Assembly: GCA_964385185.1 (NCBI GenBank)
Contig: CAYLOA010000012.1
Coordinates: 1-34,060, forward strand
Length of the DNA: 34,060 nucleotides
Reading direction: 5' to 3'
Source: an uncultured Methanosarcinales archaeon
Lineage (GTDB): Archaea > Nanobdellota > Nanobdellia > Woesearchaeales > CALCXY01
Shown: one piece after another, positions 24,001 through 30,000 of the stretch
Layout: every line of letters begins with the position of its first letter
Position numbering within the stretch: the stretch's first letter is position 1
Made by a program: the position numbers

Positions 24001-27000
24001 TGTTTACCTAATCCAGTTACATGCACTTGCAAAGTTACCGTCTTCTCATCAGGCATATACACTCGTGAAATCTTACCACCTACTACTTTCTGTAAATCTT
24101 TCACAACATACCCTAATTCAAAAGCACTTAACTGTGTCTTAAAATGATCTGCCATAAAACTACCTAAGAAGAGAGTTATTTAAAGATTGTGTAATGATTC
24201 TAAAAAAACACCAAGAACTTCATAAATTACACTACATTTCAGAGAATTAAAATACAAAAATGACCTAAGGTGTCAAATTATAAGATTCCCCGGCATTATT
24301 AGTATTCTTTAAACAATACTTTGTTATAATATATCCCACAACACCAGCAACAATAGCTGCAGGAATATCTTCAACTTCTTGTGCATTTTTTGGAATAATG
24401 TCCCACAAACCCTCGCCAAGAACAGCATACAGAGTTATACAAGGGGTGACAATATCTGGCAAATATTTTCCAAGGGTACTGAGAATTTTTGACTTTTTCC
24501 TTTCTCCATATGATTGAATGGACCGTCCATAGAGGCCAGCCATCATGATAGTTCCCATAACTGGGTTAAAATTGCCAATATGTTCTCCTACAATCCCTAT
24601 ACTTTTACGATCAACAAGATGGATAGCATCTAAAGTCCATCCAACTGCACCAATTCCACAAGCACCATAAAACACTTTATCTTCAAACGACATATAACAT
24701 CAAATAAATAGTATACTAGTCAAGTATAATAAATGTTTCTACAATTATATTTCATATAATCAAGAATTTTTTAAGTTTTTACTGTAAACAATTTCATGAT
24801 CTCTCCAATCTATCATTTCCCATCCAAATCGATTAGCTAATTTTTCAGGAACAGCGTTAGTCTTGCCTCTGATATATGATCTTCCTTGCAACAGATTATG
24901 CGTCAACATAAATAAGTGGTATGGACTAATCTTCTTAAGTTTAACCATAATATTAAAATAGGTAAAATGTTATAAACGTTCCTGAATATATTAGACAACT
25001 AAAAAAATATTGGTAGATACTTAGAAAAACAAACTATACACATCTTCATCTTCTTTATCATAATAATGATTCTTTAAAGATGTTTCAAGCTTAAACCCTA
25101 ATTTCTCATAAAACTTTTTAGCTCGATCATTGGAATGGTGAGTTAACAAATACAACTTACGCAAAGAAAAACCTTTCTTAACATAGAATGCTTTAATTTC
25201 TTTAACCAATCCGTCAAATAACTTCTGAGCTATCCCTTTCCCTCGAGCACTTCCCAAAACTGCAATCCTATTCAACTCTGCTAACTCATGTTTAGGCAAA
25301 TCATGAACTGTCCAAGAAGCAAAACCTAATATCTCACCATCCTCAACAACAACATAACGATGTTCTTTTCCAATTTCAGAAACAAACACTTTCTCACCCT
25401 CAGCAACGGTATCCATATTATAACTTTCAACCATTACTTTGGCAATCCCTTTTGCATCCGTAACTTTTGCTTTTCGTATCATTCCACAGTCACCACCTTA
25501 GCTAAATTCCTAGGTTTATCAATATCACAACCCCGTTGCAAAGCAATTACATAAGCAAACACTTGTAAAACAACAACTGAAACAATCGGACTTACATAAT
25601 CACTCATTTTGGGAACATAAATCACATCATCAGCAACCTTCAAAATCCCTTTATCCCCTTCAGTCGCAATAGCAATGATCTTTCCACCTCTAGACTTTAC
25701 TTCTTGCATATTATTTAAAACTTTATCATACAAATCATCTTTCAAAGCTAAAAACACAGAGGGCATATCCTTATCAATAAGAGCTATAGGTCCATGTTTC
25801 AACTCAGCCGCTGATTGACCTTCTGCATGAATATAACTAATCTCCTTCAACTTCAAAGCACCTTCTAAAGCAATAGGATATAAATATCCTCTACCCAAAA
25901 ATAACACATTATTATGAGTACTGTACTTAGAAGCAACTTTTACAATGGAATCATATCCCTTCAACACCTCTTTAACATTCCCACCTAATGAAGCTACCTC
26001 TTGCATCTCCATTACACCTTTCTCTCGGTTATATCCTTCCTTATGCTTGGCATAATACATACAAAACATAAGAAGTGTCTGAACCTGAGCAGTAAAAGCC
26101 TTAGTACTTGCCACCCCAACTTCTTGCCCAGCTTGTGTAGTTAAAGTAAAATTACTCTCACGAACAAGAGTTGAATGAGCAACATTACAAATACTCAGCA
26201 CAAAAGCCCCTTTTGCCCTTGCCTTATCAACAGCAGCCAAAGTATCAGCAGTCTCGCCAGATTGAGAGATAGCAATAACCAATGTTTTATCATCAACAAT
26301 CGCATCTCTATATCTAAACTCAGAAGCATACTGGACATCTGCTGGAAACTTCAAGAACTTCTCAAAATAATAACTTCCCACCAATCCAGCGTAATAAGCA
26401 GTCCCACAAGCAATAATAACAATTCTATGCAAAGGCTTCATCCGTAACTTCTTAAGCTCCTGACCAACATGGTCAAAAGTCTTCTTTAAAGTATCAGGCT
26501 GTTCATAAATCTCTTTAAGCATATAGTGTGGAAACTTCCCTAGCTCTGCCCGTACGATTTTTCTATAGATTGTTTGAATCTGAAATTTCTTTTTCTTCCG
26601 GGAATTAATATCAAAAAGGTGAATTTCGTCACCCACTTCTGCTAGTTCACCATCATGCATAACAACAGCTTCATTTGTATAATCCAAAAATGTTTGAAGA
26701 TCAGAACTTATAAATTTTTTCTGATCCCCCAAACCAAGAGTCAAAGGACTGCCGTTTCTGACACCGATTAGACTGTTAGATTTAGAGTCCATGACAACTA
26801 ATGCATACCTACCTGTCAGTTTTGGTAAAATATTTAAAATTGCATCCCTAAGTGAAGATCTTTTTTTGACCTCATCCTCAATCATATGAGCCAAAACTTC
26901 AGAATCAGTTTCAGATGTGAAAGTGTGACCATTTTTGTGAAGTTTTTCTTTTAACTCTTGAAAATTTTCAATGATCCCATTATGAACCAGAGCAATATTG

Positions 27001-30000
27001 CCCTTACAATCGGTATGTGGATGAGAATTTTCTTTTGTAACACCTCCACAAGTTGCCCACCTAGTATGACCAATACCAAGACTTCCAGATATACTTGAAA
27101 GCCTCAATTTCTTATTTACTATGTCAATTCTTCCAACCTCTTTTTTAACAATAATGCCCTTTTGGTTTTGAATTGCTATTCCTGCCGAATCATATCCTCG
27201 ATATTCTAATTTCTTTAGATTGTCAACGATAATCTTACTTACGTCATTCTCGGAAGAAATAACCCCTATTATTCCACACATGGGAAACCCCCAGAATATT
27301 TAGCAACAAGAATTCTTAACTTATCCTTCTTGACAGGATGCTTGAAACCTATAAGTTCTGCAAATTTGAGAATATTCTCTTTCTTGGTTATAGAGAAATA
27401 AAACATTTTAGTTCTATTTCTCGGATGGTGTATTAGAATTTGATTTGGACGAATACCAATCGATTGAACCAATTTATGAATATCTTGAAGAAGTTCTTTG
27501 CTTTTTTGAGAAATTACAATCATACTTTTCTGAGGGTAAAGGAATCCTTCGTCATCATAAAGTCCCTGTAACAAATATTTTGCAAGGTGAAGATTGTTCT
27601 TGTCAAAAACAAATGGAGGAATTCTCTTATTAAATTTATTTTTATCGTATTCCAGAAGTTCAAAGAAAAAGTGACCAAGAGTAGTTGGTAACCAAACTTC
27701 TTTTACATTGGTTGGTTTTCTTCTTTGATATATTTTGAAATCCCCAAATAATTTCTTAATATCGATGACAAATTGGTTAATTAAAGTATGAGATTGGTTA
27801 GCGTAGAATGGTCTATATTTTCCTTCGGGTACATTAGTATGAATTCCTCCATCACCCAAGAAATTACCGATAACCCTAAATAAGGACGGTGAAATCAGAT
27901 CCTTAAGATTGAATTCTACAGGAAATGAAGTTTTTGTTTTTATTGAACAAATATTTTTTAATACGGTCGACCTTTGGATTCCATGGTTATTTCCCAAATT
28001 TATCAGTGTGTTAATATTTATGAAGTAATTTTCAATTTTAAGAATTCTACGAACAGTATTGCTGGACGAATTAATTTGCCTGGCTGTAGAAGAATAATTA
28101 GAAATTCTATTATTTAACAATTCTCGAAATAAAGGTGTTATCTGACAATAATAATTCTCGAAATTGATAAATTTTGTGATATTCATAATCTCTTTTGGAA
28201 TATCGCCAAAATTTTGAGATTTCAGAGGAATTATTTTGTCCTGATTTTCACCTGTAGTGAGAGATTTAATCATTTCTTTCATTACACATCCCTCAATATG
28301 CCAACCAACTCCTTATGATTACCACCTACAAAATCAGCTCCTTCACCTTCACCATAAAGAACAGTCTTCCCACCCATCTTTCCTGCCATCTTCAAATCCT
28401 TCTCAAAATTGTCACCAACAAAAACACATTCATAGGGACTCACCCCTAAAGCCTGCATAGCCAATTTAATATATTCCTCGTTTGGCTTCATAACACCAAT
28501 AGAATCACTACTCAATACCAAATTAAAATATCCTTCCAACTTCAATCTCTTAATCTTGGGTATCAACACATCGCTAGGGTCTTCACTCACTAAAGCAACC
28601 TTATAACCTTCCAATCCCTCCAATAATTCGGGAACTCCAGAAAATACCTGTAATCTATTCAATAACACCTTCAAAAAAGCACCAAATGCACCTTCAACAT
28701 CCTTCAACCGATGTCGTTTTGCCAACAATCCATAGCTATACTTTCTATGTCTTTTTTTAGGGTCTGTATCTTCCTTCACCTGTTCAACAATCTCTTTCCA
28801 TCCAGCATAGAGATGTGCTTCTCTTCCACCTTGTTTAGCAAAAAACTTCATGGCAGCCTTATCTGCAAGAGGACTCACCACCTTAGTATCATAAAGTGTA
28901 TTATCAGCATCAAAAACAACAGCCCGGACTAAATGATCTTCCTCTAAAGTCTTAACAGTCTTTCCAGGATAGACCATCTTACCAGGCTTACAAATCACAT
29001 CTTTACCAATCGTAACACCATCTCCTAAAAACACACCAACACTACAGTCAGCTTTCTCATAATGATCTTTAACAAAAACCTCTGCCTTGCCACTCTTAAC
29101 AACAAATCCATCACCAACTACACAATTCTTACCAATCACAGAATCTATAATCTTACAATTATTACCAACAACAGCCCCTTCCATAATAACAGAGCCATCA
29201 ATAACACTATTATCGCCAACATTTCCAGCTACTCCAGAAAAATTCTTCAAAACTGTTTTTTTACCAATCTTCCCTCCAACCCAACCTTTTTTATCAGCAA
29301 ATTTCTCCACCAATAATCGATTAACAAGCAAAACATCCCAAGGTTTACCTAAATCCTCTCGTTTTCCGTCATAGACCCAATACGGCAACTTCCCACCCTC
29401 CCTTAAAACATACTCTGGAGGAGGGACTTCTTTTTTACCAGAAAACAAAATATCCTTCTCTATTCCAGCCAAAAACTTTTGAGTATTCAAAATCCCAGCC
29501 CCAACCAACCCTAATTTACTAGGAGCTTTCTCAGGTTTTTCCATAATCTCTACAACGACATCCTTTTCCAATCGAGCAATCCCATATCTTTTAGGGTCTT
29601 TCACCTTACGAAGTGTAATGACTCCGTCACCTTTGTTCTTCTTTAATAATGTCCCAACTAAGTCATCAGAATGGACACTATCTCCATACTTAAAAAGAAA
29701 ATGGCTATCAGTGAGTAAATCTCTAGCAGAATAGATCGCATGGCTAGGCCCTAATTGAACATCTTGCACGACATACCCTATTTTAGTCTTGCCATACTCT
29801 TTTCCACAACGCTCAGAAATCTCCCCAACATTATCTCGATTACAGATAATAACAATATCATCTATACCATGTTTAACAAACTCATCAATATGATAAAAGA
29901 GCAATGGTTTTCCCAAAAATTCTAGCATAACCTTACTCCCAGTCAAACTAAAAGGCTTAATCCTACTACCACTCCCAGCAGCAAGTAATACTCCAATCAT

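Follow-up and report, generated by a model that had tools for sequence, protein, structure and literature searches.

The locus described here raises the question of how a homing endonuclease gene can be placed at the 5′ end of an essential gene, since the prevailing view is that an essential gene tolerates such an enzyme only with a self-splicing intron or an intein. The window, i.e., the whole stretch of 34,060 nucleotides that was analysed (contig CAYLOA010000012.1 of assembly GCA_964385185.1, from an uncultured Methanosarcinales archaeon placed in Woesearchaeales by GTDB), contains a LAGLIDADG gene, g00781, directly in front of glmS. The survey's finding grouped this gene with two others of the same genome, g00526 and g00346, which are situated before gatE and leuS. 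Coordinates of the features are collected in Table 1.

Table 1. Features of the glmS locus in the window and of the two further endonuclease genes; positions without a contig name refer to the window.
Feature	Position	Strand	Basis or remark
GNAT acetyltransferase, 3′ of glmS	25021..25482	-	Pfam Acetyltransf_7 (1.8e-15); syntenic with congener
glmS, full-length glutamine-fructose-6-phosphate transaminase, 600 aa, starts MCGI	25479..27281	-	Pfam GATase_6/7 and two SIS
glmS codons 72-80, CAT ACT AGG TGG GCA ACT TGT GGA GGT (H T R W A T C G G), inferred homing-site region	27042..27068	-	allele association; relic junction
g00781, free-standing two-motif LAGLIDADG homing endonuclease gene, 337 aa	27269..28282	-	Pfam LAGLIDADG_3, AF2, Foldseek, GC
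13-nt overlap of endonuclease 3′ end (…GGFPCVE, stop) with glmS start ATGTGTGGAATAA	27269..27281	-	read from sequence
LAGLIDADG motif 2 LAKYLLQGLYDDEGFL, aa 233-248, acidic residue 245	27539..27586	-	family alignment
LAGLIDADG motif 1 LFRVIGNFLGDGGIH, aa 134-148, catalytic Asp144	27839..27883	-	family alignment
N-terminal helical, HTH-like DNA-binding region (predicted), aa 33-130	27893..28186	-	AF2 helices; HTH hits of relatives; intein-insert alignment
Leader, aa 1-32	28187..28282	-	missing from conserved core of relatives (alignment); pLDDT <50 at aa 1-24
glmU-like nucleotidyltransferase, left-handed beta-helix and HAD phosphatase fusion, 572 aa	28282..30000	-	Pfam
g00526, 404 aa	C7:1590-2804	+	LAGLIDADG_3 E 0.0058, under cut-off; overlaps gatE start
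g00346, 321 aa	C4:34109-35074	+	HTH_26 only, E 0.0016; before leuS

The endonuclease gene and its surroundings

The length and position of g00781 and its overlap with the glmS start, as given by the survey's finding, were confirmed from the open reading frame and by reading the sequence; a GGGGG run is located 6 nt 5′ of the glmS ATG. The gene lies between a glmU-like gene and glmS, and the TAA stop codon of the former (28284-28282) overlaps the endonuclease ATG as TAATG. The product of the glmU-like gene matches NTP_transferase (1.3e-23), Hexapep_GlmU, and Hydrolase (3.9e-24) in Pfam. The GC content of g00781 is 0.27-0.32 compared with 0.35-0.40 in the flanks, and its GC skew is reversed (+0.06 to +0.13 versus -0.2 to -0.6); this deviant composition was counted toward g00781 being a foreign insert. 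Empty sites are found in congeners, i.e., in G045 for the genome of the window (G000) and in G173 for the genome of a relative, G078, and in both the glmU-like gene is directly followed by glmS. The GlmS of the window is 60% identical to that of G045, where the GNAT gene also has a counterpart at the same place (61% identical). The empty site of G045 has the same TAATG junction as the window (...GGAGGatttTTAATGtgc in G045 and ...GAGGgatgtgTAATGaaa in G000), and the leader of g00781 has its ATG at exactly the position of the glmS ATG in this empty site, for which reason the leader probably represents what is left of a glmS 5′ end that was displaced.

The assignment of g00781 to the LAGLIDADG endonucleases stands, with a LAGLIDADG_3 match of 46.2 bits (E 5.4e-12; cut-off 22.5). 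In motif 1, G143, D144, G145, and G146 (LGDGG) are invariant in 14/14 family members, and in motif 2 (YDDEG) the same holds for D243, D244, and G246, residue 245 being E or D; two LAGLIDADG helices are present, each with a terminal catalytic acidic residue (D144 and E245). The AF2 model (pLDDT 86.9, pTM 0.84) has the pseudo-dimeric alpha-beta-beta-alpha-beta-beta-alpha fold, and its best Foldseek matches are PI-PfuI, the TliVMA intein, PI-PkoII, and I-DmoI (E 2e-8 to 1e-6, probability 1.00). The N-terminal helical region gives weak HTH_26/HTH_7 matches in relatives, and its counterpart in intein inserts is the part that bears the HTH (aligned at profile positions 3-100).

Close homologues of g00781 occur in 6/400 other genomes of the order, each from a different family, in agreement with the rarity noted by the survey. 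A full-length glmS follows directly behind the endonuclease in all 25 family loci with downstream DNA, so that the position at the 5′ end of this host gene is kept, as had been proposed; the endonuclease stop and the glmS ATG of relatives range from a 15 nt overlap to 5 nt apart. The spacing of 11-12 nt formerly given for G079 and G078 is corrected to 4-6 nt, counted from stop codon to ATG. The family occurs sporadically, close relatives having the empty site, and is constantly linked to one gene, as is characteristic of mobile genes. Judged from these data, g00781 is an intact free-standing LAGLIDADG homing endonuclease, probably active, of a glmS-specific family.

Duplicated GlmS starts in front of related endonucleases

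An in-frame GlmS fragment fused to the endonuclease (MCGII...GMGHKRWA) had been described in G078. This fusion is real and, moreover, represents the common state of the family: in 16 of the 24 loci with upstream DNA an uninterrupted MCG… GlmS start reads in frame into the endonuclease, and in one further locus the relic is interrupted by a stop codon. A recognisable relic is absent in the other seven of the 24, comprising the copy in the window and six others, and most of the model proposed below consequently rests on relatives. All relics found by a frame-blind tblastn search (12/12) are in frame despite differing internal deletions, and the MCGI start is retained even where the remainder of the relic is gone. 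In seven relics the last residues are GHxxWA (codon 76), and the linker behind them (xENF/ERF/IKY…) is shared; the relic end is placed with some uncertainty at A76 or as far as N85. The relic at locus L171 is nearly intact (…TIGIAHTRWA/LERFNKSK) and differs from the resident copy, implying a recent event at the same junction. By their best matches, the relics resemble the host lineage, as the relic of G078 is closest to its congener (60%) and that of G375 to its family mates. Taken together, the relics suggest a graded fossil series from fresh duplication to no trace.

Candidate target codons and the proposed homing cycle

The glmS of the window encodes Cys78 instead of a near-invariant His. 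Among the alleles compared, Ala76-Thr77-His78 occurs in 0/24 endonuclease-linked and 52/71 endonuclease-free glmS alleles (Fisher p 4e-11; 3e-8 after collapse to 16 endonuclease clades), where the linked alleles are interrelated and the free sample is biased toward GlmS similar to that of the window. The linked alleles were obtained as 0/14 and then 0/10, the second set being gathered after the idea was formed, and the free alleles as 22/32 and 30/39. Carrier and non-carrier alleles differ at the putative target: linked alleles carry Ser76, Gly76, or Thr/Asn/Cys78, and for five linked lineages the closest alleles without the endonuclease have Ala-Thr-His, while 19/71 endonuclease-free alleles also depart from it. 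From the relic junction and this association, the endonuclease probably cuts near glmS codons 76-80, and codons 72-80 of the window are presumed to be an immune form of the homing site. Ala76Ser and His78Thr/Asn/Cys are the predicted natural immunity substitutions, the latter in an otherwise near-invariant active-site residue.

We consider it fairly likely that the full form of the family is a splicing-free homing cassette comprising the linker, the endonuclease ORF, and a replacement for the first ~76-85 glmS codons. The endonuclease would cut an endonuclease-free glmS near codons 76-80 (…TGG GCN ACN CAY GG…), and donor-templated repair would bring in the cassette. Codons 1-76 of the recipient glmS would thereby be pushed upstream, where they are seen in frame with the endonuclease; they may supply it with the glmS start codon and ribosome-binding site and provide a left homology arm for another round. 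The putatively imported 5′ end, which begins a few bases from the endonuclease stop and keeps glmS whole, has the variant at codon 76 or 78 found in the allele association and would thus be immune. After fixation, the relic would shrink through in-frame deletions, and the copy in the window would be the end state, with no recognisable relic and with the endonuclease ATG at the position, within the TAATG overlap, that the glmS ATG held before. By virtue of a spare 5′ end and of a displaced native 5′ end serving as translation start and homology arm, such a cassette would need neither splicing nor a conserved neighbourhood. The glmU-like gene is directly upstream in 6/31 endonuclease-free glmS loci, i.e., the upstream gene is not conserved, and an intragenic left arm would for this reason widen the host range. 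The comparison of relic and resident copies agrees with the cassette model in only 5/7 loci, which weighs against it.

Alternatively, g00781 may be an ordinary free-standing endonuclease in the spacer before glmS that cuts in or near glmS, the relics being passive scars of one illegitimate repair event with no role in expression or homing; we regard this as unlikely, yet worth serious consideration. The linker shared after WA suggests a single ancestral junction, relics are lacking in the 7/24 loci mentioned above, including that of the window, and signals of co-conversion, including an import of the glmS 5′ end, are not carrier-specific. The mean change in N-terminal identity relative to the closest neighbour is -0.105 in linked and -0.091 in free alleles (p = 0.29), mosaic-like signals are present in endonuclease-free alleles too, and a breakpoint at residue 84 among G000, G045, and L167 (chi-square 25) is weakened by a control in which the N-terminus of G045 is also L167-like. 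Passive scars, however, fit poorly with a frame that survives several distinct deletions in 12/12 relics, with an MCGI start that persists when the rest of the relic is lost, with the recent event implied by the L171 relic at the same junction, and with an allele association that centres on the junction codons.

Relation to inteins and other known systems

The main GlmS intein site, H72/S73, is occupied in at least 98 of 120 long GlmS, and true GlmS inteins read GH/C…HN/S. The relic junction (A76) does not coincide with it but is four codons downstream. This proximity, together with the alignment of the whole protein to the HTH and LAGLIDADG insert of inteins (profile positions 3-295), would fit a descent of g00781 from a GlmS intein, or from a "fractured gene" arrangement with its split intein, by loss of the splicing domain in place. 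Such an origin is nevertheless highly improbable. Hint/Intein_splicing (PF14890) domains are absent from g00781 and the relic fusions in Pfam searches, and the relics read GHxRWA straight over the intein site, an uninterrupted run which indicates that they derive from an intein-less allele. An intein proper was rejected because g00781 is, furthermore, a separate ORF with its own stop, and a fractured gene was rejected because an entire glmS (600 aa, aligned over 1-600), not a C-terminal half, follows the endonuclease and the upstream piece duplicates codons 1-76. The special kinship to the intein of Methanocaldococcus jannaschii GlmS that had been claimed was not borne out: the family profile scores 112 bits with MCM, 64 with eRF1, and 62 with EF-2 inteins, versus at most 65 among the 120 long GlmS proteins that formed the GlmS side of the comparison, so that inteins of other host proteins are equally close or closer. 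No intein-sized glmS frame was seen among the matches in 100/151 genomes of the order. Least probable of all is a domesticated WhiA-like regulator of glmS in place of a mobile nuclease, since its HTH and LAGLIDADG architecture, WhiA structures at Foldseek ranks 44 and 50, and tight coupling to glmS are outweighed by invariant catalytic acidic residues, deviant composition, a patchy occurrence (only 6/400 related genomes, missing from congeners) instead of universal vertical inheritance, and duplicated gene ends, which are scars of DNA breakage and not of regulation.

The splicing-free cassette shares features with several known systems. Intein-encoded LAGLIDADG endonucleases (PI-PfuI, PI-PkoII, TliVMA, and the GlmS H72/S73 class) have the same fold with an HTH and a two-motif core, and the GlmS inteins occupy the same host gene, the candidate target of the g00781 family being a few codons away; by contrast, g00781 has no Hint domain and lies outside the host frame, and the integrity of glmS is secured by a duplicate of its 5′ end, not by protein splicing. 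Certain integrative elements insert into tRNA genes via site-specific recombination by an integrase and thereby rebuild the 3′ end of the gene. There, too, a spare copy of the displaced gene end keeps the target functional, whereas the present case would involve repair of a nuclease-induced break and concerns the 5′ end of a protein gene. The free-standing SegF, SegG, and MobE of T-even phages, which are GIY-YIG/HNH enzymes encoded in intergenic spacers, spread by "intronless homing", i.e., by break repair with flanking co-conversion, a polymorphism at the target site shielding the donor. In these systems (cf. PMC2790892), the endonuclease gene adjoins its target gene, as is the case for g00781. 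The phage systems have no duplicated gene end, whereas the family described here comprises LAGLIDADG enzymes of a cellular archaeal chromosome, with a fused displaced gene start and an intragenic junction. Inserts in organellar genes, described as introns or transposon-like, carry a part-homologue of the host gene, so that the gene end is duplicated and replaceable by foreign sequence, as here; an inferred cleavage site, presumably immune alleles, and a displaced end that would serve as endonuclease start are peculiar to the present case, which is also chromosomal, archaeal, and recurrent in at least 24 loci. In the "fractured genes" (Dassa et al., 2009; PMC2677866), a free-standing endonuclease gene is likewise reported within the stretch covered by a conserved enzyme gene, apparently with its own expression signals, and the host halves are rejoined by a split intein, whereas the glmS locus lacks an intein and has an entire gene downstream. 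No paper on such an arrangement in archaea was found in full-text searches of the main text of freely available articles.

The family suggests a splicing-free alternative in cellular archaea. Possibly, though here we are more hesitant than about the cassette, it represents a third lifestyle besides introns and inteins for a homing endonuclease inside an essential gene, at a hot spot only four codons away from the widespread GlmS intein site, and, in an order whose sampled genomes showed no intein-sized glmS frame, an ecological replacement for, or competitor of, the intein. The family offers a concrete cleavage-site prediction (glmS codons ~76-80) and, with its defined candidate target, a source of new monomeric LAGLIDADG scaffolds; it also accounts for ORFs of this archaeal group that had no annotation and for its fusion proteins with GlmS fragments.

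Regarding the two other genes, the LAGLIDADG assignment is not supported for g00526, whose match (E 0.0058) stays under the Pfam cut-off. The positions given by the survey are correct: g00526 overlaps the gatE start, a GTG codon, by 17 nt, and g00346 ends 39 nt before the leuS ATG and 21 nt before a TTG. No relics were found in the gatE and leuS endonuclease families. Both genes are rare in the order (homologues of g00526 in 4/300 genomes, four close homologues of g00346 in 300), and their homologues, too, stay beside the start of the respective host gene, gatE in 4/4 and leuS in 4/4 loci, one of the latter being divergently oriented.

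Organisation and distribution of the glmS-linked endonuclease

The glmS locus of the window comprises four genes arranged head to tail on the minus strand, in the order glmU-like gene, g00781, glmS and GNAT acetyltransferase gene. The TAA stop codon of the glmU-like gene overlaps the ATG of g00781 (TAATG at 28284-28280), and the glmS start is overlapped by the final 13 nt of g00781. The open reading frames, the Pfam assignments and this 13-nt overlap confirm the arrangement of the endonuclease gene and glmS described in the survey's finding. The base composition of the g00781 interval deviates from that of its surroundings (GC content of 0.27-0.32 versus 0.35-0.40 outside), and the GC skew is positive across g00781 and strongly negative in all neighbours. 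The glmU-like gene encodes 572 aa, consisting of a GlmU-like nucleotidyltransferase, a hexapeptide-repeat domain and a C-terminal HAD phosphatase; this fusion is common to the congener G045 and several other genomes, in which matches reach residues 570-572.

Genes of the glmS locus in the window
Feature	Position	Strand	Evidence
glmU-like nucleotidyltransferase/beta-helix/HAD fusion	28282-30000	minus	Pfam
g00781, LAGLIDADG endonuclease ORF, 337 aa	27269-28282	minus	Pfam LAGLIDADG_3, E 5.4e-12
glmS, 600 aa, start MCGI	25479-27281	minus	Pfam
GNAT acetyltransferase	25021-25482	minus	Pfam

Among 400 further genomes from the order, six have close homologues of g00781 (40-47% identity, E <1e-60); the denominator includes the unpublished genomes G315 and G182, which enter in no other way. 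The six genomes belong to different families, and all six homologues lie directly upstream of glmS. Furthermore, a scan across prokaryotes with each species represented by one genome yielded 13 close homologues, six of which are the loci already found, and a metagenome scan yielded 16, four of which duplicate earlier loci. A complete glmS follows the endonuclease in 25/25 loci with downstream DNA, the window included and L180 left out because it ends at a contig edge; the distance from the endonuclease stop codon to the glmS start ranges in these loci from a 15-nt overlap to a 5-nt gap. In G045, which belongs to the window's genus, the glmU-like, glmS and GNAT genes adjoin without an insert; the junction of this empty site reads …GGAGGatttTTAATGtgc, and therefore the endonuclease ATG of the window sits exactly at the position of the glmS ATG in the empty site. 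Another empty site is found in G173, from the genus of G078, where glmS lies directly behind the glmU-like gene. The earlier reading of g00781 as a homing element is supported and sharpened by the analysis.

Marine, seawater and hydrothermal-vent metagenomes (20 public runs, 17 studies) contain contigs with the exact stretch 26800-28600, and the endonuclease-bearing genotype is therefore geographically widespread. Contigs of four further metagenome runs compared with 26300-29300 were identical over both junctions, and no joint omitting the endonuclease was seen in these contigs, a form of data that drops rare variants. This archaeal group also contains many more distantly related free-standing LAGLIDADG ORFs, which lie next to various genes (24-33% identity; open frames approximately 365-400 aa long; loci L009-L031 and L051-L069).

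The LAGLIDADG_3 match of g00781 scores 46.2 bits against a Pfam cut-off of 22.5, and both LAGLIDADG motifs are present (LGDGG with Asp144 and YDDEG with Glu245); an alignment of 14 family members shows no variation at G143, D144, G145, G146, D243, D244 or G246. The AlphaFold2 model built on this alignment is confident (pLDDT 86.9, pTM 0.84), is disordered only at residues 1-24 and 332-337 and contains a helical, HTH-like domain at residues ~33-130. The top Foldseek matches in the PDB are the intein endonucleases PI-PfuI, TliVMA and PI-PkoII, together with I-DmoI, and PI-PkoII is the sole significant PDB relative by sequence. The only other match of g00781 in its own genome (C4:23214-23546, E 7e-5, 28% identity) lies within a 1278-aa open frame and is probably the intein endonuclease domain of another gene.

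Relics of a putatively displaced glmS start

The survey had noted in G078 an in-frame fusion of a GlmS fragment to the endonuclease. This fusion is real and represents the usual state: an uninterrupted frame runs from a GlmS N-terminus (MCGI…) into the endonuclease in 16 of the 24 loci with upstream DNA. At one further locus (L176), an in-frame stop comes after MCGIIFISN, and the relic is absent from seven loci, the window among them. Of the relics detected by a frame-blind tblastn search, all 12 are in frame with the endonuclease. They carry several different internal deletions and measure about 30 to 76 residues; the frame kept despite these deletions argues for selection on it. Seven relics end in GHxxWA (codons 72-76 in the numbering of the window's 600-aa GlmS, used throughout), followed by linkers that resemble one another (xENFIKH, ERFNKS, IKYLSK…). 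The relic of L171 is nearly undecayed (…TIGIAHTRWA|LERFNKSK) and its sequence differs from that of the resident glmS behind it. No Hint domain was found in any relic-endonuclease fusion.

The relics resemble the host lineage. The best match of the G078 relic is its congener G173 (60%), that of the G375 relic is its family mates, and in 5/7 loci the relic is nearer than the resident N-terminus to the closest endonuclease-free neighbour. As possible traces of lost cassettes, second GlmS N-terminal matches upstream of glmS were sought in 31 endonuclease-free loci, and only a tandem repeat in G146 (L090, contig C4, 1251-1526) came up, with 3.4 copies of an 82-bp unit (98% matches) directly in front of glmS. 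In each copy, the first nine codons of glmS (MCGIFGYKG), accompanied by a ribosome-binding-like site, run into a short tail and a stop. The repeat may have arisen through recurrent repair events at the 5′ end of glmS, may act as a leader-peptide device or may be an artefact of assembly.

Codons 76-78 and a proposed cassette model

Endonuclease-linked and endonuclease-free glmS alleles differ at codons 76-78. In a first set, Ala76-Thr77-His78 (GCN ACN CAY) was present in 22/32 endonuclease-free alleles, 30 of which had His78, and in 0/14 linked alleles; eight of the latter had Ser76 (AGY) and seven had Thr, Asn or Cys78, with both changes in one. Further endonuclease-free 5′ ends had A-T-H in 30 of the 39 readable (40 fetched), and linked alleles from metagenomes, obtained once the idea had been formed, had it in 0/10. 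The totals are 0/24 versus 52/71 (Fisher p = 4e-11; p = 1e-5 for the second set alone; p = 3e-8 with carriers collapsed to 16 endonuclease clades), for alleles that are not phylogenetically independent and an endonuclease-free sample drawn from GlmS similar to the window's. The remaining 19/71 endonuclease-free alleles likewise deviate from A-T-H. The window's own allele has Cys78, and its enzyme falls in a well-supported clade of the endonuclease tree (98/97) in which codon 78 variants are dominant. The carrier substitutions at codons 76 and 78 flank the relic junction. The simplest reading of these sequences is that the enzyme would recognise the DNA of codons ~76-80 and that the carrier alleles would be immune variants.

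In the cassette model proposed here, a break near codon 77 of a naive glmS would be repaired from a donor arranged as relic, linker, endonuclease and glmS. The donor relic would pair with recipient codons 1-76, and the donor resident gene with the part of the recipient glmS beyond the break. Copying would then bring the linker and the endonuclease into the recipient together with a new 5′ end, and the native 5′ end would remain as a leader of the endonuclease. Because the new 5′ end begins right behind the endonuclease stop, glmS would be kept intact. The model would account for the fusions being in frame, for the conservation of the junction and the close stop-start spacing, and for the resemblance of relics to the host lineage. 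It would also explain how the element crosses between lineages with differing upstream genes; the glmU-like gene is directly upstream of glmS in only 6/31 endonuclease-free loci.

Import of the glmS 5′ end was assessed from the resident genes. The drop in nearest-neighbour identity over the N-terminal 76 residues did not differ between carriers and non-carriers (p = 0.29); between close relatives, these residues generally diverge more than the remainder, whether or not the endonuclease is present. Pairwise residuals were only +0.028, and a best-partner mosaic test gave mosaic-like signals in both groups. Within the triplet of the window's genome, G045 and locus L167, the window's GlmS resembles L167 before a breakpoint at residue 84 and G045 beyond it (chi-square 25); in the control, however, the N-terminal segment of G045 was L167-like as well.

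Relation to inteins, precedents and endonucleases at gatE and leuS

Intein-bearing proteins numbered more than 100 among the results of a search for long GlmS and came from other lineages, including Omnitrophica, Patescibacteria, Persephonella and Micrarchaeota. At least 98 of the 120 listed long GlmS have junctions of the form GxGH|C…HN|S-RWATHG, which put the main insertion site of the intein at the boundary of codons 72 and 73 and retain RWATHG. The relic junction lies four codons beyond this site, and the relics are uninterrupted across it and are therefore derived from an intein-less allele. The suggestion that g00781 is specially kin to, or descended from, the GlmS intein is unsupported. 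BLASTP of g00781 against the 120 proteins, none of them identified by name as the M. jannaschii GlmS, gave 22-28% identity (best 53 bits), and the family profile scored no more than 65 bits on GlmS inteins, compared with 112 on an MCM intein, 64 on eRF1 and 62 on EF-2, so that a special kinship was rejected. The profile aligns over its full length to the intein insert that carries HTH and LAGLIDADG, and the family therefore has the architecture of an intein endonuclease minus the splicing domain. Within the order, no intein-sized glmS frame occurred among matches in 100 of 151 genomes (a denominator including the unpublished G132 and G121, which enter in no other way), and the open frames were all ≤676 aa.

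Free-standing phage endonucleases with intronless homing are one of the closest precedents. Other close precedents are mitochondrial inserts of Tremella with an N-terminal duplicate of the host gene (PMC7315562; reviewed in PMC8393795), and ‘fractured genes’ with split inteins (PMC2677866). Unlike these three, the arrangement at glmS is chromosomal and archaeal, combines an intein-type LAGLIDADG enzyme lacking any splicing element with a displaced gene start fused to it, and offers a candidate site and immunity alleles open to testing. Full-text searches covering the main text of openly available papers returned no description of this arrangement.

The survey had placed two further LAGLIDADG-fold genes in front of gatE and leuS. 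For g00526 (contig C7), the association with gatE stood, homologues in 4 of 300 other genomes (48-61% identity) all being directly upstream of and overlapping gatE; its LAGLIDADG assignment falls below the Pfam cut-off. For g00346 (contig C4), the shared host gene was borne out: the four close homologues in a set of 300 genomes (43-53% identity) are all at the leuS 5′ end, three of them sharing the strand of leuS and one being divergently oriented. This protein has a distant relationship to the glmS family, matching the G078 enzyme at E 5.5e-9. When 70 loci of both families and of second-tier homologues were scanned for self-similarity that would mark host-gene relics, the G078 glmS positive control was the only one detected. 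The divergent leuS-associated endonuclease (L107, G001:C146, 803-2201) is about 245 nt from the leuS start, and at L109 and L110 the endonuclease frame is ~400 aa, with ~250-290 nt between its conserved core and leuS. At the gatE locus of the window's genome (L099, C7, 1-4209), gatD and gatE are parted by an opposite-strand GNAT gene and the g00526 ORF, and GatE is only 473 aa long.
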